Below are positions 37,764 to 58,508 of a DNA stretch of 64,000 nt, in pieces. The position numbers were made by a program, and so were the translations under genes. Below the pieces are notes generated by a model. It had not been told where the DNA came from, ran no database searches, and saw only the letters and a list, made by a program, of their open reading frames with translations. This stretch comes from Escherichia phage A7_1. Position 1 is the stretch's first letter. Every line of letters starts with the position of its first letter. The stretch lies in sequence record OP795442; one strand, 5' to 3'.

Positions 37764-38006
37764 ATGAGAGTACGTCAACATCGTGGTACATTGATCGAAA
37801 GTTTGAAAACTGTTAAACAGATTGAAGGTACAAAACAAGCTCTTGTGGATCATATCAACAAAGAGTTAGGTAAACCGTTTAACTTCTCTGTTGATTCGAT
37901 CAGTATTGTGGAAAAAGGAGTTGATGAGCGTATCAACTGGAACAACCATCTGATCCTGATTGATGGATTTGGTGTATTTGGTTATTGTGATCAACATCCT
38001 GTTTAA
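37764..38006 (+). CDS. hypothetical protein
   Basis: Track ORF, 80 aa, GAGGAG SD. Confidence 0.5.
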   Translation: MRVRQHRGTLIESLKTVKQIEGTKQALVDHINKELGKPFNFSVDSISIVEKGVDERINWNNHLILIDGFGVFGYCDQHPV

Positions 38007-38015
38007 GAGGTGGTT

Positions 38016-38117
38016 ATGGGTATTAAATGGTGGTTGTTTGTAGTTCCTGCAAATGATAATGCAGGTGGTGATGGTAAACGTGCAGTCGCACAAACCTATG
38101 TCTATGGTCGTCATTAA
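38016..38117 (+). CDS. tiny protein (about 33 aa, not in track)
   Basis: MGIKWWLFVVPANDNAGGDGKRAVAQTYVYGRH behind AAGAGGTGG SD; approximate. Confidence 0.3.
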   Translation: MGIKWWLFVVPANDNAGGDGKRAVAQTYVYGRH

Positions 38118-38126
38118 GGGGTTATT

Positions 38127-38534
38127 ATGGATGCTTTTTTGAGTATGGTGTTTGCACTAACAGTGGTTGATTGGGTATTTATCGGTATCTATTTACTGTG
38201 TATTCCTTTTGTGATCTGGTTTTACATTGACCTTTTGGCAGGTACTGGCAAGGTAAGTGGGATGGATTACTTCATGTTTATTGTTGTGATCCTGATGGGA
38301 CCTTTAGCTTTGTTGTCTTTCCTTATTGCAAACATTGTGGTAAGAGGGGGCGCTATCAAACAAGCCATTCTTTTAAAGGTGAGTGGAACTGATATCGGTA
38401 AGAAGATCATTGTCTGGAACATTACACGTAAGCTTAAGAAGACTGATACCAAATGGGTTAATCCTTTAGAGCGAGCCGTTCAGAAACGTCACAAAGTCTT
38501 AATAGGGAGAAAACATGGGAAATGCAATCCGTAA
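38127..38534 (+). CDS. membrane protein
   Basis: 135 aa, three hydrophobic helices. Confidence 0.5.
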   Translation: MDAFLSMVFALTVVDWVFIGIYLLCIPFVIWFYIDLLAGTGKVSGMDYFMFIVVILMGPLALLSFLIANIVVRGGAIKQAILLKVSGTDIGKKIIVWNITRKLKKTDTKWVNPLERAVQKRHKVLIGRKHGKCNP

Positions 38535-38678
38535 AATCAAGTGGAAGTTTTGGGAATACGCGCTGGTTGTTGCTGGATATCTTTTCGGATACGGTCATGA
38601 AGTGTACTATGGTGTGAAGCATAATCGAAACATGGCGTACTTCGCGTGGAAGTTTCCAGAGCGTAAGGAAAAGAAATG
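38515..38678 (+). CDS. small protein (about 54 aa, not in track)
   Basis: MGNAIRKIKWKFWEYALVVAGYLFGYGHEV... behind AGGGAGA SD; stop overlaps next ATG; approximate. Confidence 0.35.
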
Positions 38679-39197
38679 AAAGTCACAGAAAGCTTAGTTA
38701 AAAAGCTTCGAATAGAAGAACTCCAGGAAGAAAGGCTCGATCCTATCGAGGTTATCATTGAGAACTACGAGAATGGTAGAGGTAAGCTTATAGTCACCTC
38801 AAGTGGTAAGTCTTGGGTAGGCCAATGGAATGCAATGGGAGGTAGTGTAGAGTCCTTCATCCAACGGGTAGATAATGACTACCTTATCGGATGTATGGGG
38901 CGAGCGCCTAAATTCATTGAAGACAAGGATGAAGATCCTGTCTTCATTAAGAAGATGATCTTGAAGCAACGCCGGACCGATTCAATAACTAAAGGGCAGG
39001 CGAGATGGGCTTGGGATTATACGGAGACGTTTGCCCCTGACCGTGATCACATCCTTCATGGGGTTCCTTTTGCGCTTCAACCCCTGAGGGAGTTAGAAGA
39101 ACCTTGGTATCTGGACTGGCCCACAAAAATCAATACGGATTATGTACACCAAAGTAAGATCCTGGATGTTGTTCGTAAAGTCATAAAGCCAAATTAA
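38676..39197 (+). CDS. hypothetical protein
   Basis: Track ORF, 173 aa. Confidence 0.5.
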   Translation: MKVTESLVKKLRIEELQEERLDPIEVIIENYENGRGKLIVTSSGKSWVGQWNAMGGSVESFIQRVDNDYLIGCMGRAPKFIEDKDEDPVFIKKMILKQRRTDSITKGQARWAWDYTETFAPDRDHILHGVPFALQPLRELEEPWYLDWPTKINTDYVHQSKILDVVRKVIKPN

Positions 39198-39204
39198 TCA
39201 CAAA

Positions 39205-39235
39205 AAGGGGTTGACGGGAGTCGCCCCTTAAGTTA
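39205..39235 (+). terminator. terminator-like hairpin
   Basis: aggggttgacgggagtcgcccct, weak T-run; approximate. Confidence 0.45.
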
Positions 39236-39272
39236 GACTTCAGTTATCGAAACAAAGAGGGGGAAACACATA

Positions 39273-39488
39273 ATGACTAAGATTGTAACTTACGTGTTCG
39301 AAGGTGATTCTGTACCCAGTGAATTTTTTGAAGATGTTTACAGCAATGATCGTGGAGTGGAACCTTTAAAGGTTTTACTTGTTGATGTTACCAACTACGG
39401 TGATGATATCGAAGTCACAGTGCAAGGAACAACCCGAGAAGTCATTGATGAACGTATGAAGTATTGGACACTGTTGCTGAAAAAATAA
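39273..39488 (+). CDS. hypothetical protein
   Basis: Track ORF, 71 aa. Confidence 0.5.
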   Translation: MTKIVTYVFEGDSVPSEFFEDVYSNDRGVEPLKVLLVDVTNYGDDIEVTVQGTTREVIDERMKYWTLLLKK

Positions 39489-39520
39489 AAAAGTTATTTT
39501 AAATTACATAGGAGAAAGAA

Positions 39521-40162
39521 ATGGCTATCTATGCAAAACTGAAAGAAAGTAAGAAAAGTTATTTTATTTCAATGGACCCATCTAACCGACGTATGATTGA
39601 AAATCATGGTGATCGATTCATTGTTCGACCTTCTGAGAATAACGATTCTTACTTACGTCCGGTGGGTCCACGTATTGAGGGTCAGTTCTTAACATCCCGA
39701 GATATCGAAGAGTATTTTACATTCTTCCCTGAATGGTCAGCAGAGTCAGCAGAATACATCGTTAACTTGGCGATCCCGCAGGGTCAGGTGTCTATTGATG
39801 ATCAGTATCTGTTGGGTGATTTAACTGGGGACTATAGAATTAAAACAAGCCACCCGAATATGTGGCGACTCTATAACAACTCTACTAACCCTGATGATTA
39901 TGTCCTAATCAAGCAGAGTAATTTGGAGAAATACTTCACCTTAGAGGAAGATTGCTTAAAGAGAGCATTGAATAAGTTTGACAATTACACCTCTTCTTCT
40001 TCTTCTTCTTCTTCTTCTGTTGAAAAGGAACAGGAACTCGCAGATGATGATGTTTTTGAATTGAAGATTAAACGCACAGTAAGGGTTAAGGATGCAGAAA
40101 TCACAGAGGACAATCTGGATCAGTTCATTGCACAGCTTACTAAACTGGTTAAAGGAGAATAA
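39521..40162 (+). CDS. hypothetical protein with poly-Ser tract
   Basis: 213 aa; internal run of 9 Ser encoded by a (TCT)n repeat. Confidence 0.55.
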   Translation: MAIYAKLKESKKSYFISMDPSNRRMIENHGDRFIVRPSENNDSYLRPVGPRIEGQFLTSRDIEEYFTFFPEWSAESAEYIVNLAIPQGQVSIDDQYLLGDLTGDYRIKTSHPNMWRLYNNSTNPDDYVLIKQSNLEKYFTLEEDCLKRALNKFDNYTSSSSSSSSSVEKEQELADDDVFELKIKRTVRVKDAEITEDNLDQFIAQLTKLVKGE

Positions 40163-40165
40163 AAG

Positions 40166-40480
40166 ATGATTATCGATCAAAGAACGCAAGTAGTTATTGA
40201 CAAGACTTTCAGTGTACGTAAAAGTATCATTGCAGACATTAGTCTTGAGCGTATGACCGAAGAGGGTATTGATACTTCTGTAAACTACCCCTTGATGGAA
40301 GAAGACTTCCTACGTAAAATTATGAAGCAGAGTTTTACCGACTACGTTCGGGTAGAAACGAACAAAGACATGTGGTTAGTCTTTAAACTATCTGCCGATA
40401 CTGATCACGAACAAGAATTCAATGCGGCATTAGCCTGGATTCTTAAATACTGTAATGACAATGATCTGGAGGTAATGTAA
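40166..40480 (+). CDS. hypothetical protein
   Basis: Track ORF, 104 aa. Confidence 0.5.
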   Translation: MIIDQRTQVVIDKTFSVRKSIIADISLERMTEEGIDTSVNYPLMEEDFLRKIMKQSFTDYVRVETNKDMWLVFKLSADTDHEQEFNAALAWILKYCNDNDLEVM

Positions 40481-40707
40481 TGCACAAGCTTCCAAAGAAC
40501 TTTCGATTCTATCGTGATCTGAAATTAAAGTCTGTGCTGTTTGTCGAGAATTTAGAGTTAGAGGAGTTTTATGGTTTTGAATGGTACGAAGGGGATATGG
40601 GAGAGATGAACCTCAAGAATGTTCTCGAATTTTGGGGCAACGATGATGGAGAAGGATACAGCCCCACTCCAAAACACGAGCTTTCCCTTGTTGAGATTAG
40701 ACAGTAA
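40480..40707 (+). CDS. hypothetical protein
   Basis: Track ORF, 75 aa, ATG overlaps upstream stop. Confidence 0.45.
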   Translation: MHKLPKNFRFYRDLKLKSVLFVENLELEEFYGFEWYEGDMGEMNLKNVLEFWGNDDGEGYSPTPKHELSLVEIRQ

Positions 40708-40812
40708 CAAAAGAAGGGGCCTAAACAGGCCCCTGTAAGCATAAACAAGCACAAGACGATAAATGACCTTACCAAAGATAAAAGGTCCTCACAAACGCAT
40801 ACAGGAGCTTAC

Positions 40813-41631
40813 ATGGCCTATCGTAAATTTGACCCACTAATCATTTATGAAGTTGTCCCAATGAGTGTCTCCAATCCTCATGGTTTGCAATCACCTACCC
40901 CACTTGACCATAAGACAATGATCAGGAATGCAGAGTACACCTTAAGAGATCTTGAGAACGAAGAGATTGAAAGTGCTGTGCATGGATTGAAAGACCTGAT
41001 CCGTGAACTTGATACGGATGATTCTGTTCAAGAATATATTGAAAAGTCAGAGGCGCTAATCACGAAGTTTCATGAGTACCGCACTAAGGTATCGCGTATT
41101 CTTGATGAAGCTTTTGATCCTTCATCAAAAGACCCGATAAATGATGACAAGGCAATAGCCTTACTCAGCCAAATAGCTGACGCTACTGACAGCATGGACC
41201 CTGGTTTTGTAAGGGCTGATCATACCTGTGTAGATCAGTTTCCTTTAGCCTATCTTAAATCCAAAAAAGCATTCGGTAGTCTGGCTTTTGTCTGGGAGTA
41301 TGAGAAAGATTCCCTTACTCGTTACATCAATCGGGTAGGTAAGAAAGATACTTCAGTTACGTTAAATATCTTTTGTGATGGTTCCTTGATGGTCCATAAC
41401 AACTGGACAAAAGAGAGCATCCTCTTTGGTAAAGAAAGAGATCAGAAATTTAAACTGGTAAACTATATCCGTTTCGCAACAGAGGATAGTAAAATGGGTA
41501 AGTCATTTAAAGAGGAGGACTTTAAAACTTTCTTTGAGGATTGGCTTTCCCCAACAGAAGAAGAGATCCAACTCTTCAAGGCTGTAAATGGGGATGTTTC
41601 GTTCGACCTCTACACACTTTTTAATGAGTGA
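40813..41631 (+). CDS. hypothetical protein
   Basis: Track ORF, 272 aa; last gene of the rightward unit. Confidence 0.55.
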   Translation: MAYRKFDPLIIYEVVPMSVSNPHGLQSPTPLDHKTMIRNAEYTLRDLENEEIESAVHGLKDLIRELDTDDSVQEYIEKSEALITKFHEYRTKVSRILDEAFDPSSKDPINDDKAIALLSQIADATDSMDPGFVRADHTCVDQFPLAYLKSKKAFGSLAFVWEYEKDSLTRYINRVGKKDTSVTLNIFCDGSLMVHNNWTKESILFGKERDQKFKLVNYIRFATEDSKMGKSFKEEDFKTFFEDWLSPTEEEIQLFKAVNGDVSFDLYTLFNE

Positions 41632-41651
41632 TATTTGTTCGCTGAAACAAA

Positions 41652-41748
41652 TTCAGATTTCAGATCCAAAATCTATTTGAGATATTTCCCTGTGATATTT
41701 GTTTCATGGGGAATTTTCAGATTTCAATTTGAAATTCTATTTGAGATA
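41652..41748. repeat. two about 33-bp imperfect direct repeats
   Basis: ttcagatttca(g/a)at...aaat(c/t)ctatttgagata occurs twice about 63 bp apart; approximate. Confidence 0.6.
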
Positions 41749-41926
41749 AATTTAAGACTCCTGCCACCGTGCCCCATCCATACTGTGTCATTCCTGCATA
41801 CCTGCACCACTAGATCAACTTAGTTGATGCCCCTCTTACAGACTCACCCTCCAGATTCAATACGTTACTGCTCCACTATACATACGATACAAAGCAAACA
41901 TACGACACTCATGACCAGAATAATTT

Positions 41927-42094
41927 GAGAACTTGAGAGGTTTTTCATTTTTGAGATCGTAACCTGAAAACTGTGCACGAGAACTTGAGAGGTTTTTCGA
42001 TACAGGGATTAGGAACTTGAGAGCTTTTTCATTTTTGAGTTTGCATTTGAACTTGAGAACTTGAGCTACAGGCCAGATACTTGAGAGGTTTTTC
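41927..42094. repeat. iteron array, five copies of about 17-bp gaacttgagaggtttttc
   Basis: Direct repeats at about 41930, 41980, 42013, 42049 and 42077; interspersed catttttgag and gaaaaatttttc palindromes; no ORF. Confidence 0.7.
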
Positions 42095-42451
42095 AAATTT
42101 CAGTTTCATTTCAAAATTGAAAAATTTTTCATAAGCATAAAAGTATAGAGGTTGTCAAGGTCTTTGATAAGAAATTTTTCAGGGGGTGAGAATTATTCTC
42201 ATTTGCAAAATAGCGGGCAGGGGTGGTGATTGCCTCGTGAAACCGTCCTCATCACCGTGAATATATAATAGCACCGTTTTTGATTCGAAAGCAACAACAT
42301 TTTAAAAATATTTTTCGGTAAATTTTAGGCGAGCTACCAGCGATTATAGCTATCGATGCCCTTCGGCTATCATCACCCAAGTTTAACGCCGTTGGTAGGC
42401 GATTGTTTTCCTATGTAGGCATTATGGCCCCTGGCGGGGCCGTTGTCAACA

Positions 42452-42730
42452 TTATTTTTTATCTTCTTGCCAGGTAAGAACGCCTAACCAAAAATACACG
42501 TCGCCCTTAGCGTTCGGCGGTATCTTGCTTTCTTTCCCGCCAGCACACGCCCAAAGGTAACCATCGGTAAACGTATCAAGGTAGTCCATATCTTCCACCT
42601 TTCGATCCGCCAGGTTAAGGATAGTATTAACGTCTAAGCCTGTTGCGCTTGCTACCTGGTAGACCGTGCCACCTTGCCAGCCTAACGAGTGCATAAGATG
42701 CAAAGTAGTAGTAGTGGTGATGGTAGTCAT
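42452..42730 (-). CDS. hypothetical protein, leftward orphan gene
   Basis: Track ORF, 92 aa; own TTGCCA-17-TATAGT promoter on minus strand; locally higher GC. Confidence 0.45.
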   Translation of the reverse strand: MTTITTTTTLHLMHSLGWQGGTVYQVASATGLDVNTILNLADRKVEDMDYLDTFTDGYLWACAGGKESKIPPNAKGDVYFWLGVLTWQEDKK

Positions 42731-42778
42731 AGTATCGCCCTTTCTTCTGTTGTGCGCCCTGGTTGGCGCGGTAAAAAG

Positions 42779-42870
42779 ACTATAAATGATCTTCCTTTAT
42801 ATGGCAAGGAAAAAGAAAATTAAAAAAGATTGAAAATAATGTTGACGTGGTGAATCTGGTAGCGTAGTAT
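42779..42870. promoter_or_regulatory. divergent promoter pair
   Basis: Rightward TTGACG-17-TAGTAT; leftward TTGCCA-17-TATAGT. Confidence 0.55.
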
Positions 42871-42927
42871 TCATCTCATCGAACGGCGACATGCCAACAA
42901 GTAAACAAATAAAAGGGCAACAACAAA

Positions 42928-43113
42928 ATGAATAAAAGAATTACAAACGTAAATCCTGGCGAACGTTTCCAACATGAGGGGCATTTGCACACTGTAGTAA
43001 GCAACAAAGAGCATACTGTAAGAGTAAATAGAAATATCTTGCAACTTCGCGATCGTTTTGGTATCGTACAGACTTACACTTTCGAAGCAAATAAAACAGT
43101 TAAAACTTTCTGA
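42928..43113 (+). CDS. hypothetical small protein
   Basis: Track ORF, 61 aa. Confidence 0.5.
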   Translation: MNKRITNVNPGERFQHEGHLHTVVSNKEHTVRVNRNILQLRDRFGIVQTYTFEANKTVKTF

Positions 43114-43124
43114 GGATTTTTAAA

Positions 43125-43460
43125 ATGGCACTAGTCACTAAGTATTTCATTGAAGGCCAGCAAGCGGCGCAACAAGGTTACAGCCGTGTTACTCGTTACA
43201 AGAAAGAAGAAAACAAGATTGAATTTTTCAAGGGTTACGATAGTGTAAACCGTGATGCAATGGTCCTACGCTTCGAATCCGATCCAGTGGGCAAGCCTGT
43301 TACCTCTTACCAGGCATCACCGCAGATTGTTTATGTTGGTACTGTTAAAGAATGTAACGACAAGTTAATCACTTTGAAGCAGGCCGATCGTGCGGGTTAC
43401 TTTGTTGTTTACACTGCTGACGGTAAGCCTTACCAGTACGAAAGCAAATATTTTAAATAA
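43125..43460 (+). CDS. hypothetical protein
   Basis: Track ORF, 111 aa. Confidence 0.55.
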   Translation: MALVTKYFIEGQQAAQQGYSRVTRYKKEENKIEFFKGYDSVNRDAMVLRFESDPVGKPVTSYQASPQIVYVGTVKECNDKLITLKQADRAGYFVVYTADGKPYQYESKYFK

Positions 43461-43466
43461 AAAGTA

Positions 43467-43523
43467 TTGACAGAAAGAAAGAAGTAAATTAAATTATACC
43501 ACGTAACGCCGCAATCGTGCGGC
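43467..43523 (+). promoter_or_regulatory. sigma70-like promoter plus 5' GC hairpin cassette
   Basis: TTGACA-17-TAAATT then hairpin gccgca-atcg-tgcggc. Confidence 0.55.
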
Positions 43524-43550
43524 AATAAAAACTGATAGGAATTGAACAAA

Positions 43551-43763
43551 ATGGCTAAAATCATCATTAAAAAATCCCGTGTATCTTCTGTTGCTCGCGT
43601 CGAAATGGTAAACACTATGCCAGGTTACCGGACTCGCGAGGAAGCCCGAAGCGTTGCAAAACAGATTAAAGCCCGTGGCTTAACTGTAAGTGCACCGACC
43701 AAAACACAAGAAGGATGGAAGGTATCTATTAAATCCGGTACACTGTCAATCAATAAACACTAA
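43551..43763 (+). CDS. hypothetical basic small protein
   Basis: Track ORF 43542 has a TTG start; ATG at 43551 (MAKIIIKKSR) is likelier. Confidence 0.5.
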   Translation: MAKIIIKKSRVSSVARVEMVNTMPGYRTREEARSVAKQIKARGLTVSAPTKTQEGWKVSIKSGTLSINKH

Positions 43764-43825
43764 TAGCCAAAACATTAACGGGGCAACTTTGCCCTCATTA
43801 AATAACATTATCCAGGAGTATTAAC

Positions 43826-43984
43826 ATGACTAGCCAAAACACTAACATTGAAAAAATCAACATTACTAAAGAGCGTAAAGCATGGAATGAAACATTAAAT
43901 CTCAAAGGTAAGAAGCTGAATAAAACTAAACGCGATCGCAGTACAAAGCGGGCCTTTTGTGAATTTACAGCGGATCAAGAGTGA
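43826..43984 (+). CDS. small basic protein (about 52 aa, not in track)
   Basis: MTSQNTNIEKINITKERKAWNETLNLKGKK... behind CCAGGAGT SD; approximate. Confidence 0.35.
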   Translation: MTSQNTNIEKINITKERKAWNETLNLKGKKLNKTKRDRSTKRAFCEFTADQE

Positions 43985-44175
43985 TGATTAAAGTTATTGC
44001 ACTTACTGCTTTATTGTGTATACCATTTTTGGCGCACGGTACTAAGTTTTACGGTGCTAACTTGATAGATTGTAAAGCTCATATGCTGGACCATGAAACA
44101 GGCAACAAATTTCTTAAGCCTTTCCAGATCAATCCAGCGGCATTTAGTGACCGGTGTTTTGTATCAGGAAGGTAA
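43984..44175 (+). CDS. small protein with signal-peptide-like N-terminus
   Basis: Track ORF 43981..44175; MIKVIALTALLCIPFLAHG. Confidence 0.45.
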   Translation: MIKVIALTALLCIPFLAHGTKFYGANLIDCKAHMLDHETGNKFLKPFQINPAAFSDRCFVSGR

Positions 44176-44287
44176 AGCCAGTACGCTGATAATGCATTAC
44201 GATCCGACAACAAAGAAAGGTAGTCTATCAATCCAGGTTGGAGAGGTGGAAGAGTTTTCCGGTGAAATAGTCTGTAATTAATATCTT

Positions 44288-44319
44288 GAGGCCCGTCATT
44301 GTACGGGCCTTTTTCTTTT
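44288..44319 (+). terminator. rho-independent terminator
   Basis: aggcccgtcattgtacgggcct followed by T-run. Confidence 0.8.
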
Positions 44320-44343
44320 ATGAAAATAATTTTGAAAATGTTG

Positions 44344-44411
44344 TTGACAGTAAAATCGATTCTGTTAAGATGTATCACATCAGGACGGGGAACGAAGTAA
44401 ACACTCCCCGT
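44344..44411 (+). promoter_or_regulatory. promoter plus hairpin cassette with no downstream ORF
   Basis: TTGACA-16/17-TAAGAT then acgggga...tccccgt hairpin; next start codon is after a second cassette. Confidence 0.5.
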
Positions 44412-44470
44412 TAAGTAGTCCAGGAGTAAGACATACGAAAAACTCCCCTGATAAAAAGATTTAAAAGTGG

Positions 44471-44527
44471 TTGACACAAAATTAAAAACTGTTAAGATGT
44501 ATCACATACGGCGGCAATAGTGCCGCC
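44471..44527 (+). promoter_or_regulatory. promoter plus 5' GC hairpin cassette
   Basis: TTGACA-16-TAAGAT then ggcggca-atag-tgccgcc. Confidence 0.6.
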
Positions 44528-44547
44528 TCCAACAAAGAGAAATTATC

Positions 44548-44799
44548 ATGGCTAACAAAACTAAAACCACTAAAACTTATAACGGTCACAAAAACAAAAA
44601 TCATTGGAACGTTTCTCTATGGCTTAACAATGATTCATCACTTTACCAGCTGGCGAAAGAATTTATTAACGCTAACACTAATCGTAATGATGCGGCGCGG
44701 GATATGATGATTTTTCTGGAACAAACTGGACAATATAAAACTCCAGACGGTTTCAAGTACAGCACTACGGCGATCCGTGCTGCAATGGTTGGAATGTAA
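44548..44799 (+). CDS. hypothetical protein (paralogue of 46366..46605)
   Basis: 83 aa; shares HWNVSLW and C-terminal TPDGFKYSTTAIRAAMVGM. Confidence 0.55.
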   Translation: MANKTKTTKTYNGHKNKNHWNVSLWLNNDSSLYQLAKEFINANTNRNDAARDMMIFLEQTGQYKTPDGFKYSTTAIRAAMVGM

Positions 44800-44817
44800 T
44801 ATTCAATACTGTAACAA

Positions 44818-44836
44818 TGGCGGGATTAGTTCCCGC
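44818..44836 (+). promoter_or_regulatory. 5' leader GC hairpin
   Basis: ggcggga-ttagt-tcccgcc. Confidence 0.5.
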
Positions 44837-44855
44837 CTTTGCGGAGAAATATCTA

Positions 44856-45143
44856 ATGAGCAAAGTAATTGACTGTAAAGTGTTAACCAAATCATTGTCA
44901 ATCAGTGAGTGCACCAATGGTTATTGGCTTTATGATGAAACACGCGGCATGAATCTAGCTATGGAAGCTAAAACGGCTGAGGCGGCGTATGTGCAAGCCC
45001 TGGAATACTACCAGAGACGTTTAAAGGAAGTAGAAAACAATTATCAGAATCTCAAAGAGAAAGTAGATCATTTCGTTGGTCAATTCGTTGACGATGACGA
45101 GGAAGACGGGCACTACTGCAACCGCTGCGGATCTTACAGTTAA
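44856..45143 (+). CDS. hypothetical protein
   Basis: Track ORF 44817 begins inside the hairpin; ATG at about 44856 behind GGAG is likelier (MSKVIDCKVL). Confidence 0.5.
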   Translation: MSKVIDCKVLTKSLSISECTNGYWLYDETRGMNLAMEAKTAEAAYVQALEYYQRRLKEVENNYQNLKEKVDHFVGQFVDDDEEDGHYCNRCGSYS

Positions 45144-45147
45144 GTAC

Positions 45148-45207
45148 TTGCAATTAGTTTTAAGTACTGTATAATGTTTTACATCGAGAGCGGGAATAGT
45201 TCCCGCC
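45148..45207 (+). promoter_or_regulatory. promoter plus 5' GC hairpin cassette
   Basis: TTGCAA-16-TATAAT then gcgggaa-tag-ttcccgc. Confidence 0.6.
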
Positions 45208-45229
45208 TCACATCAAAGAGATTAAAATT

Positions 45230-45457
45230 ATGGCTATCCTTATTGTTCGTGTATCCGGTACAGTTGGTAACTCCCAGGTTGTAGCAGTTGTAACAAGCAA
45301 AAAGATTAATGAATCTTCTAAAATCTTGAACGAATGGGCCGTTGCTAACTTTGGTCAATGGTCGAGCGTCGAGTATCTCGAATCTTACCAGGTGCCAACT
45401 ATTAGCCTAACCGATCTCAATGTTGATCGCCTGTTATGCCTGGATGAATTGATTTAA
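45230..45457 (+). CDS. hypothetical protein
   Basis: Track ORF, 75 aa. Confidence 0.5.
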   Translation: MAILIVRVSGTVGNSQVVAVVTSKKINESSKILNEWAVANFGQWSSVEYLESYQVPTISLTDLNVDRLLCLDELI

Positions 45458-45464
45458 AAAGTAG

Positions 45465-45524
45465 TTGCAAAGTAAAACGAATAAAGTATAATACATTACA
45501 TCAGGGGGAGAAATGATTCTCCCC
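45465..45524 (+). promoter_or_regulatory. promoter plus 5' GC hairpin cassette
   Basis: TTGCAA-16-TATAAT then gggggaga-aatga-ttctcccc. Confidence 0.6.
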
Positions 45525-45541
45525 ACTAAAAGGAAACTAAA

Positions 45542-45685
45542 ATGAAAACTTGTCAGTGTGGTAAAAAGTCTATTGCTGGTCTGCGTCGCGGTGTTGCTTT
45601 ATGCCAGTATCATTACAATAGTCAAGTATGGGGTAAAACGTGGGCTGACCAGGTTGAAGCAGCAAAGAAAGCAAAAAGTAATTGA
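45542..45685 (+). CDS. small Cys-rich protein (about 47 aa, not in track)
   Basis: MKTCQCGKKSIAGLRRGVALCQYHYNSQVW... behind AAGGA SD; the antisense track ORF 45570..45887 is rejected; approximate. Confidence 0.4.
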   Translation: MKTCQCGKKSIAGLRRGVALCQYHYNSQVWGKTWADQVEAAKKAKSN

Positions 45686-45738
45686 CAGCAAGAAGAAAAA
45701 GAGTAAACTGTATTACGTAGGGCGGCAATAGCGCCGCC
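45682..45738 (+). promoter_or_regulatory. promoter plus 5' GC hairpin cassette
   Basis: TTGACA then ggcggc-aatagc-gccgcc. Confidence 0.55.
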
Positions 45739-45762
45739 ACATCAAAGATAGAGAGAATCAAA

Positions 45763-45981
45763 ATGGCCAATATCCGCACTGTACTGAAAAATGCAAAACA
45801 AGTTTTATTTTCTGACGATGAATATTTTAATCGCAATATCAAAGGCGTTCGGAACATTGAGGATGTAAAGGAATTATTTGGAATCAAAGGTAACGTATAT
45901 CGTAAAGGATTGCACGGTAATAATTTTGAATATAAGTTGGCTGATAGTGATTATAATTTTACACTGACCACCATTAGTTGA
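45763..45981 (+). CDS. hypothetical protein
   Basis: Track ORF, 72 aa. Confidence 0.5.
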   Translation: MANIRTVLKNAKQVLFSDDEYFNRNIKGVRNIEDVKELFGIKGNVYRKGLHGNNFEYKLADSDYNFTLTTIS

Positions 45982-46000
45982 AAGTTTTAACCTAGCGCTA

Positions 46001-56406: not shown

Positions 56407-56604
56407 ATGACCATCGCTAATGAACTGATCGCTGTACTGAATGAAGCCAAATCTAATGATATCGATGTACAGATTAAAGAGTTACCCAATGGTCTGATCG
56501 GTTGTACTTGCACTTGTGTCGGAAGTGACTACACAGAAGTAAGCTCACTAGAATCTTTGATCCGTCACCTCAAGGCGATAGTAGAAGATTGGAGAATCAT
56601 CTAA
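56407..56604 (+). CDS. hypothetical small protein
   Basis: Track ORF 56326 begins at the TTG of the -35 element; ATG at about 56407 (MTIANELIAVLNEAK) is likelier. Confidence 0.45.
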   Translation: MTIANELIAVLNEAKSNDIDVQIKELPNGLIGCTCTCVGSDYTEVSSLESLIRHLKAIVEDWRII

Positions 56605-56612
56605 TCAACAAA

Positions 56613-56640
56613 GGGGCCGCTATTGCGGCCCTTATTATAT
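56613..56640 (+). terminator. rho-independent terminator ending the rightward array
   Basis: ggggccgctattgcggcccc then ttattatat. Confidence 0.7.
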
Positions 56641-57328
56641 CCATCGGCGTGACTCCCCCAACTCTATTAATCCCTTCCCCATTTGGATCATCATATCTTA
56701 CCCTATCTAATCATCAATCCAATCACCCTTTGGAATCTCTCTCCCAAAAATCTAAACTAATCTGATAGCTTACCACAACATAACACACAAAGAAAGAACT
56801 ATTTTGCCCACAAAGAAAGGCAGTTTTAAAGAGATACCATTGCCAGAGTATGGAGGTGGCGCGACCGTAGGGAGCGACACTATAAAACGAGTATACCCCT
56901 CCTACCGCTATGCGGTCATCGGTGATAACCGATATCGTTACACGCTATCTGTTCTCTTCGTTTCCTCGTTTTATAGTGTCTATCTGTAGTAATCTTTTAT
57001 CCTTTGTCAACAGATTAATTGGCTTATAGACAATTATTTATAGTGATTTATTATGCATAGCTACTGATTATGTATGCAATAAGGATACAATAAGGATACA
57101 GTAGCGGTAGTGTAGCGACGCTGTAAATATCAACAAAGAGATGCCGTATTTGCCCACAGAATGAACAAGTAAGCAGGGCGGTACGCCCTTTTGCTAATGA
57201 GCGTAGCTCTTTTGCTAGGTAAAACTCTCTTCTCTCTTCTTTCCCAAAATAAATTTTTTCTTGCTTTTATTGCCAGAGTATGGCGGGGCGCTCAGGCTAT
57301 TGATGGCCCTGATGGAGTCGCTCCTGTA

Positions 57329-57432
57329 CAGTTGGAATAGTTCACAGTTGGATAGTCACAAGTTGGTATTATTCTTCCCACTAGTTGGAACAGGCCAGAA
57401 CTGGCAAGGCTTAGAGTCGCTCCACTTGTTGG
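57329..57432. repeat. five AGTTGG-containing iterons
   Basis: cagttggaat, cacagttggat, cacaagttggt, cactagttggaac, cacttgttggac; approximate. Confidence 0.55.
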
Positions 57433-57638
57433 ACGGAAGAAGGGCGCTTGCAGTGCGTATAAGTTGTATTATGTTAAATGCAGATCGAAATCGGTATTCT
57501 AAATCAGATTCAGAAGTCAATAGAAATCTTTAACTTTATTGTTGGGGTAGCACAACATTTTTCTTGACAAGTCGAATCAAAGATGTATTGTGGATTGAAA
57601 ATAAATGAAGATAATGCTTGACTTCTTGGATATTTTGA

Positions 57639-57655
57639 AAACATCGGACCCCCTC
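57639..57655. repeat. homopolymeric C tract (C5 T C5 T C5)
   Basis: Read directly; approximate. Confidence 0.7.
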
Positions 57656-58064
57656 CCCCTCCCCCACGGTCGCCGTGCCTGGCAGCAGTGCCAACGCACT
57701 CAACAAAAAAGAGGCAAACATCCTGTTCTTATCGACGAAGACAACTGACCTCTACTGACGTGACTACAATTGGTGCGTCTCTTCAGGCCATCACCTTTGG
57801 GCACAGATATATTTGGGCAGGATAAATAATGGACCCACCCCGTCATTAGTGACTCAAAATTTTGGCGGGAGGGTATAAAAACTAAAAAGTGGTCGTTTAA
57901 AATTTATGGCAGAGGTCCACTCAGGGTAGACATATACTAAAAATTCTAAACTACTGGAAATTATAAACTACAAGACGGGTGGATGTATAGGGAAGGGAGG
58001 TGACTCAGTGGGAAGTGGTATGTGGTAAGGGATTTATACACACGAGCCTCACTAGGCAAATGTG

Positions 58065-58226
58065 ACTCTGTGGACAATAGGTATTACTCTGTGGACAATC
58101 GGAATAACATGAAGTAGGTCAGTCTCTTCAGAAAGTCTTGACCATTGTGGAAATATATGAAGTAATCCGTCAACCAAAATGGTTTACATTGTGGAAAGTA
58201 AACCAAAATGGTTTAGATGTGGGTAA
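58065..58226. promoter_or_regulatory. cluster of DnaA-box-like TGTGGA(C/A/T)AA motifs
   Basis: TGTGGACAA x2, TGTGGAAAT, TGTGGAAAG, TGTGGGTAA, each 1-2 mismatches from the TGTGGATAA complement of the DnaA R-box; approximate. Confidence 0.35.
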
Positions 58227-58508
58227 ACAGATGTGACTCGACAGGCAAAGTGGTGTGTCTCAGTAGGCCAACAGTGGTTACTCTTTAGGCAAACTACCTG
58301 ATTTTGGGATGAATCGATATTTGTGGGAATCGTTGTACGATATTTGGGCATTATTGTAGGTGGAGTACAACAGTTTGGAAGGACTATATAGTTTGGTGAG
58401 CACAACATTTTTGGTACTGGTACAGTATTTTTGGGGGAAGCATGGTGGCTTGGTTGCAATCCAGATGCAAAAAGCACCCACAATTGGGGTGCTCTCTGTA
58501 GTTCAGGA

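Follow-up and report, generated by a model that had tools for sequence, protein, structure and literature searches.

In the window, by which we mean the whole 64-kb stretch of Escherichia phage A7_1 that was analysed and to which all coordinates refer, an array of short direct repeats lies within a non-coding region at the border between a rightward operon and a long run of small genes. The repeats are unique to this locus, are under selective constraint, keep a fixed geometry and have homologues in other genera, and they are accompanied by promoter motifs and a lack of coding capacity. Their single locus and single orientation, their conservation above that of the spacers between them and their cross-genus homology support, at the level of sequence, their assignment to selected direct repeats of a protein-binding type. 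The region is the best-conserved non-coding DNA in these genomes. Our preferred reading, to which we assign a probability of roughly 0.4, is that the array forms the core of an iteron-type, transcription-activated replication origin of this phage lineage.

The ORF-poor stretch that contains the array extends from 41632 to ~42451. An iteron region had been placed at 41640-42130 in the initial annotation; the repeats are there, but the non-coding DNA reaches further, over the whole of this stretch. Positions 41000-43000 are 99.8% identical to Escherichia phage A5-4 (OP744025.1, 145 kb, unclassified Vequintavirinae), and four further close relatives, UPEC06, A73, W70 and LTH01, are 91-97% identical to the window. 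To the left lies a rightward operon that includes genes for an HD-domain phosphohydrolase, a MoxR-type ATPase and a 512-aa PHROG 1314 protein. This operon is without an intrinsic terminator, and its last gene (40813-41631, plus strand) encodes a 272-aa protein of no assigned function. To the right, one small leftward gene (42452-42730) is followed by a 14.6-kb run of small rightward genes, and sigma70-type promoter matches were found in some of the few gaps between these genes that were scanned. In the A5-4 record terL occupies positions 1-1488 and the array region 74.4-75.3 kb, which places the two ~73 kb apart on opposite sides of the map; this distance from the packaging genes was counted in favour of an origin.

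The array consists of four full copies of (G)AACTTGAGAGGTTTTTC, a motif of 16-20 nt, within 41927-42094, together with a tandem pair of half-copies. Iterons 1 (41927-41946) and 2 (41979-41998) both read GAGAACTTGAGAGGTTTTTC, the second without any variation across the five close relatives, while iteron 3 (42011-42030, AGGAACTTGAGAGCTTTTTC) carries one mismatch and iteron 4 (42075-42094) reads AGATACTTGAGAGGTTTTTC. The tandem half-iterons at 42050-42067 (GAACTTGAGAACTTGAGC) are made of the halves AACTTGAG/AACTTGAGC. All of these copies, full and half, lie on the plus strand in a single orientation. The five ~17-bp copies counted initially correspond to these four full copies and, as a fifth, the tandem halves taken as one, and the spacing of roughly 30-50 bp given for them was slightly too narrow, since the full copies are 52, 32 and 64 bp apart from start to start. 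These distances equal 4.95, 3.05 and 6.1 helical turns, so that the four full iterons would fall within 34 degrees of one helical face.

Such clustering is well above what chance would provide. For example, a search with the 16-mer ACTTGAGAGGTTTTTC, allowing up to three mismatches, gave six matches in the window where 1.1 were expected, a number reached in none of 100 shuffles, and every one of the four good matches of the 64 kb falls inside the array region. Similarly, the hexamer TTGAGA occurs 23 times on the plus strand of the window, nine times within the ~410 bp from 41677 to 42081, against a background of 0.18 per 500 bp, and it is absent from the minus strand of that interval. The iteron core is found at this single locus and nowhere else in the 145-kb A5-4 genome. 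The array therefore holds what is looked for in an iteron origin, namely at least three direct repeats of ~17-22 bp that share one orientation and are unique in the replicon.

Upstream of the iterons, a part that we call module 0 comprises two 57-nt direct repeats on the plus strand (41628-41684 and 41692-41748), which are 75% identical and lie 64 bp apart. Each contains GTGATATTTGTT, TCAGATTTCA and CTATTTGAGATA, and the first overlaps the stop codon of the 272-aa gene. The two 33-bp imperfect direct repeats of the initial annotation are present as the better-conserved parts of these longer units. Certrevirus phages have, at this position, non-coding DNA with ~76% identity to module 0. It is followed by a C-rich, G-poor tract (41750-41925, plus strand, 57 C vs 21 G) that is confined to the A5-4 group and is the most variable segment among the close relatives, with 17% of its columns varying. 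Its excess of C over G ranks second among the 150-nt stretches of the 64-kb window, and the top-ranking stretch, 56600-56800, also comes directly after the last gene of a rightward block. The tract looks like a Rho-utilisation (rut) site, a candidate element that would end the upstream rightward operon.

Downstream of the iterons, 42095-42165 is AT-rich (GC 18-25%). The GC minimum of 18%, at 42092-42146, comes directly after the last iteron and includes the lowest-GC 50-mer of the non-coding region, which makes this tract a candidate DNA-unwinding or bending element. An AT minimum directly after the last iteron is also seen in Ro1, and it lies elsewhere in Certrevirus and PVP-SE1. Within the tract is the A5T5 palindrome GAAAAATTTTTC (42119-42130). 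The AT-rich palindromes noted at the outset are present: GAAAAATTTTTC occurs exactly once, a related sequence, AGAAATTTTTCA, is found at 42171-42182, and a separate perfect palindrome, TGAGAATTATTCTCA, follows at 42187-42201.

The elements of the right half were defined from an alignment of ten phages and follow the order palindrome, block C, block D and P_L1. The perfect palindrome is a single copy in the window, and a palindrome TGAGAATnATTCTCA to the right of the array is kept in kind across genera, Certrevirus, Mydovirus and phi92 having 2-5 copies spaced 29 bp apart. It is likely to be an operator for a dimeric protein, and it resembles a Fur box. The E. coli Fur box has the consensus GATAATGATAATCATTATC, and the palindromes of this module B (AATGAGAATCATTCTCATT) match it at 13-16 of 19 positions in relatives and at 14 of 19 in the window. 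In phi92, five Fur-like sites scoring 15-16/19 lie within ~100 bp, and arrays at 29-bp spacing occur there and in Certrevirus. Unlike a Fur box, however, position 3 of the half-site is a conserved G (GAGAAT rather than GATAAT), and the one copy in the window has a score within background, with 12 equal matches elsewhere in the 64 kb. The palindrome overlaps the -10 hexamer of a weak candidate rightward promoter (42164-42193, plus strand, TTGATA-18-GAGAAT, 9/12), where an operator might be expected; this promoter candidate was recovered inconsistently in other genera.

Block C and a leftward promoter candidate, P_L2, together occupy 42202-42294 on the minus strand. Block C (...CAGAATAGCGGGCAGG..GGTGATTG...) is strongly conserved, and P_L2, which was read by eye, consists of TTGCTT (42294..42289), an 18-nt spacer and TATTAT (42270..42265), its -10 being a conserved TATAAT-like element of block C. 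It is conserved in most of the aligned phages and is weaker in the window (3/6 plus 5/6) than in KaOmega, Ro1 and PVP-SE1 (9-10/12); Ro1 and KaOmega have TTGCAA/TTGCCA-17-TATATT. Block D (42322-42420, GGCGAGCTACCrGCGAT ... CGCCGTkGG..GGCG) is ~100 nt long and contains a hairpin with compensatory changes in its stem, and it lies 140-144 bp from the palindrome across genera. It exists as two alleles that do not follow phylogeny, one being that of the window, P7_Pc and Ro1 and the other that of UPEC06, A73, KaOmega, CR3, PVP-SE1 and phi92. Beyond it is P_L1 (42449..42421, minus strand, TTGACA-17-CATAAT), a leftward sigma70-type promoter with 11/12 matches and the top promoter score within 40500-44500, whose hexamers and 17-18-nt spacing are kept in all ten aligned phages although its spacer sequence varies. 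P_L1 and P_L2, which are motif matches and not mapped transcription starts, are both directed at the AT tract and the iterons.

What these promoters would transcribe has little capacity to encode anything. The description of the region as ORF-free is true in substance: mechanical ORFs of 62 aa (plus strand) and 79 aa (minus strand) exist, both with TTG starts, but neither is conserved. The 79-aa ORF runs over the iterons and is annotated in the GenBank records of four relatives, its repetitive translation merely mirrors the repeats, and in UPEC06 it is interrupted by an in-frame stop. No conserved ORF was found in other genera over the homologous arrays or downstream of P_L1 and P_L2. An Rfam scan of 38000-46000 gave only two matches, both with chance-level E-values, and block D has no Rfam family; scans for tRNA and tmRNA found no genes. 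Block D was also considered as a structured RNA and rejected, the leftward RNA of the window folding no better than shuffled sequences (z = -0.35). Its mixed alignment folds poorly, and alignments made for each type separately reach consensus energies that are modest on either strand.

Conservation among the five close relatives (91-99.8% identical) points to selection on the iterons themselves. Variable columns make up 4 of 98 in the iterons (4%) and 10 of 70 in the spacers (14%; Fisher p = 0.024), and the difference from all adjoining non-coding DNA is larger in significance (p = 0.002). Conservation of repeat number in relatives, proposed initially as a check, was borne out, the number and positions of the iterons being the same in all five. 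To look beyond this group we used a sensitive blastn search, in which three intergenic sub-segments matched unannotated DNA of other genera: 41653-41747 is conserved in Certrevirus, 42170-42274 in Seunavirus and phi92-like phages, and 42322-42449 in Mydovirus, Henunavirus and others. The array is in fact one module of a 0.8-1 kb ORF-free region whose position is the same in Certrevirus, Seunavirus, Mydovirus and Henunavirus, and of which phi92-like phages have a diverged form. In the Vequintavirinae genera this stretch comes directly 3' of a gene of ~270-285 aa, which is a very distant homologue of the 272-aa gene of the window with a common C-terminal F.D...PT..E motif; in phi92 it comes after a 183-aa gene instead.

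Each such stretch in the other genera contains three direct repeats of 63-78 bp. These homologous ~70-bp units, 16 of them from five genera, align as one family with the consensus GG(G/T)(A/T)CTYGA(T/G)(C/A)G(G/A)nTTTTC, AATTTCGAGATCGTATTT, ~10 variable bases and GAAAAAATTTTT. The core differs between lineages, reading GGTCTCGATCG in Certrevirus, GTTCTCGATCG in Mydovirus, GTACTCGATC in Seunavirus and GTACTTGAGAGG in Henunavirus and the phage of the window. Within one genome every copy carries that genome's version, CTCGATCG or CTTGAGAG; such concerted evolution is what iterons recognised by a single binding protein would be expected to show. Measured from first to last core, the array covers 141-148 bp in every genus (148 bp in the window). 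Remodelling of the middle unit has given rise to extra short copies in the A5-4 lineage, where the outer copies retain the ancestral span; the sole complete unit of the canonical cross-genus type in the window (~65 bp) starts with iteron 4 and extends through GAAAAATTTTTC. Integral helical phasing is found in the A5-4 lineage only, the copies of other genera being spaced by 63-78 bp. In four genera each unit has two GATC sites ~22 bp apart, and these phages encode Dam-type methylases; the GATC sites are lost in the lineage of the window. That phi92 carries the same unit in inverted copies was considered and rejected, the resemblance being short and the putative core having been left unaligned with that of the other genera by MAFFT.

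We searched the surroundings for an initiator and for host-factor sites. The ~270-aa gene is syntenic, fast-evolving and directly upstream of the region in every Vequintavirinae genus compared. The 272-aa protein of the window was not retained as an initiator candidate: it has no Pfam domain, its PHROG family has no assigned function, and its AlphaFold2 model (pLDDT 36) is unusable. Database searches with this protein return two sub-families only, and it is closer to the Certrevirus than to the Henunavirus homologue, yet the iteron core matches Henunavirus; such a lack of co-variation between protein similarity and core type counts against an initiator role. No DnaA box (TTATCCACA with up to one mismatch) is present in 41600-42500, although to our knowledge the lambda origin has none either and DnaA boxes are not universal to iteron origins. 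We found no similarity to plasmid replicons or E. coli DNA. The possibility that each iteron unit is a promoter was rejected, because neither inspection by eye nor promoter scans gave an acceptable -35/-10 pair on either strand; the only promoter candidate that overlaps the iterons scores 9/12 (42053-42081), which leaves a simple operator reading without direct support. GC skew was set aside as an origin marker, as it follows gene orientation and transcription only. A skew analysis of rV5 likewise tracked transcription direction only, and the subfamily is without a defined origin (PMC3606486). The initial annotation had proposed an iteron-type origin or an array of operators, and what holds of this is the presence of selected repeats of a probably protein-binding type in an origin-like layout, while the region has no DnaA boxes and the iterons overlap no convincing promoter. 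Counted against an origin were the lack of an identified initiator, of DnaA boxes and of plasmid similarity, the displaced AT minimum in Certrevirus and PVP-SE1, the restriction of integral phasing to this lineage, and a GC skew that follows transcription only.

From these features we infer protein binding, transcription and a link to replication, which could be connected as follows. A phage early protein would bind the 3-5 same-orientation iterons, and the bound repeats would form a bent or wrapped protein-DNA complex beside the AT-rich tract, as the fixed ~145-bp span and the A-tract palindromes suggest. Host RNA polymerase would start at P_L1 and P_L2, 170-330 bp to the right, and transcribe leftward into DNA without ORFs. 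This transcription may activate unwinding or supply an R-loop primer, in the manner of T4 oriE, oriF and oriG and of the lambda origin, and the palindromic operator between promoters and iterons might gate the traffic. The layout is origin-like: iterons with an AT-rich tract beside them (in this phage), and conserved promoters whose transcripts would run into the array with nothing to encode. A promoter directing non-coding transcription into an AT-rich element, as at R-loop origins, is present at the level of motifs. In addition, a leftward RNA over 41750-41925 would be G-rich, the template being C-rich, and so would favour hybrids; this composition is specific to the A5-4 lineage.

A second non-coding region lies 15 kb from the array, where the early block meets leftward genes. 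Four DnaA-box-like 9-mers are clustered there within 192 bp (58034-58226), and pairs of GATATTTG occur both in this region (58316/58339) and in module 0 (41630/41694). In KPP-1 the corresponding region carries TGATATTTT repeats as well as palindromes of the Fur-box type. Conservation of the second region is poor, and it can be aligned for the five close relatives only, whereas the iteron region has cross-genus blocks. For the Mydovirus KPP-1 a 514-bp terminal repeat has been reported, positioned in the second region; no other termini have been reported in the subfamily, and those of KPP-1 are 8.2 kb away from its iterons. The second region also seems to be where the assemblies of A73, W70 and UPEC06 break. 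In Bas54 a ~2-kb intergenic stretch tolerated no transposon insertions. It was considered as a homologue of the array and rejected, its positional match being to the other, convergent non-coding region, that is, the second one. The cluster of DnaA-box-like sites and this insertion-free counterpart in Bas54 weaken the origin reading of the array. The Bas51 loci are without blocks B and D and have no similar repeat array.

The main alternative, which we regard as possible but on balance doubtful, is that the region has no origin function and instead regulates transcription where it borders the early-gene block. A DNA-binding protein of phage or host would coat the iterons and another would bind the palindrome, and early promoters would be switched or a roadblock or insulator formed; a roadblock would stop leftward transcripts from P_L1 and P_L2 running antisense into the upstream operon as well as upstream read-through into the early genes. 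The region does lie exactly between the end of the rightward operon and the 14.6-kb run with its own sigma70 promoters, it contains several promoter-like sites, including face-to-face candidates around the perfect palindrome, and a palindrome inside a promoter spacer or -10 hexamer is in the classic position for a repressor. Moreover, two motif families, the GATATTTG pairs and, in KPP-1, the Fur-box-like palindromes, are common to both non-coding regions, so that one regulator may act at both borders of the early block, which lends this alternative support. The 13-16/19 matches to the Fur consensus point the same way, but the conserved GAGAAT departs from the GATAAT of Fur and the single 14/19 match is within the background of the window. 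Further arguments against control of transcription are that the iterons overlap no convincing promoter (9/12 at best), that a 0.8-1 kb region with a fixed ~145-bp span far exceeds what a promoter and its operator need, and that the leftward promoters have no gene to express.

It is improbable that the region is instead a cis site for packaging, a pac site wrapped by the small terminase, or for DNA entry, in the manner of the T5 injection stop, even though phased repeats and A-tracts spanning ~145 bp look like wrapped recognition sites. The paired GATC sites in four genera, together with Dam-type methylases, recall the pac site of P1, which is methylation-controlled, but these sites are lost in the window lineage. 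Nor does the region lie beside the terminase gene as a pac site would, being ~73 kb away. If the ends are in the second region, as reported for KPP-1, the array would lie 6-10% of the genome inward from one end, and the T5 first-step-transfer boundary has a comparable position; the termini reported for the subfamily, however, map to that other region, and Certrevirus CB7, PhiTE and several Vequintavirus phages were reported to be circularly permuted with even read depth. A long terminal repeat like that of SPO1 or T5, formed by the early block, was also rejected, since CB7 shows even read depth and no BAL-31-sensitive ends. Three GenBank records (LTH01, RUS_R7 and EC152) begin inside the array region, but we rejected these starts as evidence of termini, because three such starts in ~120 records hardly exceed chance and assemblies tend to break at repeats in any case. 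Scarcely credible is a reading of the repeats as non-functional products of slippage or duplication in a gene-poor spacer: their irregular arrangement (52/32/64 bp plus half-copies) would suggest recent duplication, and the neighbouring C-rich tract is poorly conserved, but homologous units persist in at least five genera with span and position kept, and the iterons are more conserved than their spacers and in a single orientation throughout. The two non-coding regions that bracket the 14.6-kb early block could also be joined into one system for staged genome entry and start-up, which we consider very improbable. Here the virion ends would lie in the second region, as reported for KPP-1, and the early block would enter first and be expressed. 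At the inner border of this block the iteron array, bound by protein, would be a checkpoint comparable to the first-step-transfer stop of T5. RNA polymerase, starting at the two leftward promoters that have no ORF, would then power internalisation of the rest of the genome, as in T7, and/or prime its replication, and the specificity of this control would be set by the two interchangeable block D alleles.

Known systems resemble an origin at this site in part. Like the iteron origins of lambda and of plasmids (RK2, R6K, pSC101, P1 oriR), the array has ~17-22-bp repeats of the same orientation, phased in this phage and beside an AT tract, and its copies evolve in concert within each lineage; unlike them, it has no Rep or O-type gene adjoining or overlapping, no DnaA boxes and no plasmid similarity, and in most genera its repeats are part of long ~70-bp units. 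The origin of the lactococcal phage c2 is intergenic between transcription blocks and has an early promoter whose untranslated transcript is required in cis. Our region is likewise placed between transcription blocks, but c2 has another host, belongs to another phage family and shows no homology. Clustered short repeats at a unique site, with GATC in most genera, also recall P1 pac and the T5 injection stop, from which the region differs in its distance from the terminase gene and in the location of the reported termini. T4 oriE has evenly spaced direct repeats and depends on an early promoter, and similar iterons occur in syntenic regions of related phages, whereas at T4 oriF and oriG an AT-rich unwinding element lies downstream of a promoter, and there the transcript forms an R-loop that serves as primer (PMC3016281). 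The array resembles oriE (repEA/repEB) in being a cluster of direct repeats in a large lytic myovirus, with a host-type promoter and near a change of transcription unit. In contrast, the T4 repeats are 12 nt long, those of the window are 16-20-nt cores inside ~70-bp units, and there is no sequence similarity; no gene like repEB was recognised, and even in T4 the part of the iterons in origin firing is unproven. As at oriF and oriG, the promoters of the window would direct transcription into AT-rich non-coding DNA, there being no gene for them to express, but the T4 elements are ~100 bp with MotA-dependent middle promoters and no iterons, while those of the window are plain sigma70-like and 170-330 bp from the AT tract.

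The papers on rV5, CB7, KPP-1, BASEL and HIDEN-SEQ contain no mention of the region that we could find. An iteron or control region in a phage is of a familiar kind; we found no account of the composite architecture or of its being conserved between genera while the cores switch. Vequintavirinae and their kin are widely isolated for possible therapeutic use against E. coli, Klebsiella, Salmonella, Cronobacter and plant pathogens. Neither an origin nor a master control site is known for them, and the region is a concrete target with separately mutable parts. If it is an origin, it could provide phage-dependent replicons, engineering handles and a model for iterons and their binding protein changing specificity together. 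If it is a transcription switch, it would show how early genes are timed in these phages, possibly with a Fur-like iron-sensing input. In GenBank the region is either blank or routinely mis-annotated with small hypothetical ORFs, which are placed on inconsistent strands.

Block D, a conserved stretch of about 100 nt within the non-coding control region (42322-42420), occurs as two sequence alleles that differ in their internal hairpins when the window and the compared loci (L002, L006, L009 and L011-L016) are taken together. The distribution of these alleles is independent of phylogeny. For example, the A5-4-like allele differs from that of UPEC06 and A73 despite 94% overall identity, and within Certrevirus P7_Pc and CR3 also carry different alleles. 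Such scatter against phylogeny implies that block D cassettes are exchanged between phages. In the rV5-type Vequintavirus Bas51 (L017), both block D and block B, the palindrome module around 42187-42201, are absent altogether from the loci compared, and the gene order of the window (1388-32459) is unlike that of rV5-type Vequintavirus. Specifically, the MoxR/VWA operon of the window is divergent from leftward replication genes, whereas Bas51 has rIIA/rIIB and the replication genes after the ATPase, all on the same strand.

Two genes border the control region. On its right, a minus-strand gene for a 92-aa protein (42452-42730, phrog_19316) is common to Phapecoctavirus-like phages (phiWec179, WPEC1 and others) at 77-80% nucleotide identity; these phages otherwise lack the control region, and Certrevirus lacks the gene. 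The gene appears to be a small mobile one that was inserted next to the control region. On the left, the gene for a 272-aa acidic protein (40813-41631) has a homologue directly upstream of the control region in all of the Vequintavirinae genera examined, with one intervening gene in PVP-SE1; phi92 has other genes in its place. This family evolves extremely fast, with 15-21% identity between genera and a conserved C-terminal F.D...PT..E motif. A domain search with the protein returned no domain, and structure prediction gave no usable model.

Within the non-coding regions of several genera, palindromes of the AATGAGAATCATTCTCATT / AATGATAATnnTTATCATT type form arrays of two to five. They resemble the E. 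coli Fur box (16/19 matches at best) and are found at 42187-42201 in the window, at L014:1403-1515, at L009:2988-3110 and in the KPP-1 record (L027, ~116-117.7 kb), where the second non-coding region contains them too. Phage early control may receive an iron-responsive or Fur-mimicking input through them.

A second large ORF-poor region (56600-58450) sits at the convergent junction where the early-gene block ends. It includes four DnaA-box-like 9-mers inside 58034-58226, a cluster in which the tandem 21-bp repeat ACTCTGTGGACAAT(A/C)GG (58065-58106) is counted, along with two copies of palindromic GT(C/A)AACCAAAATGGTTTA and 30-nt repeats. An alignment of the region is possible for the five close relatives alone (82-91% identity, with A5-4 itself at just 91%), and the assemblies of A73, W70 and UPEC06 appear to be broken within its equivalent. 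Its position matches both a Bas54 intergenic region free of transposon insertions and the reported 514-bp terminal repeat of KPP-1.

Across the whole window, the top two 150-nt stretches for C-over-G skew fall at 41750-41925 and 56600-56800, each immediately downstream of the gene that closes a rightward transcription block. Neither block ends in an intrinsic terminator, and both stretches look like Rho-utilisation sites. The 8-mer GATATTTG with T or G as the next base has only four plus-strand occurrences in the window (41630, 41694, 58316 and 58339), one pair in each of the non-coding regions flanking the early-gene block. Related (A/T)GATATTT(G/T) repeats are located at equivalent places in Certrevirus, Henunavirus and KPP-1.
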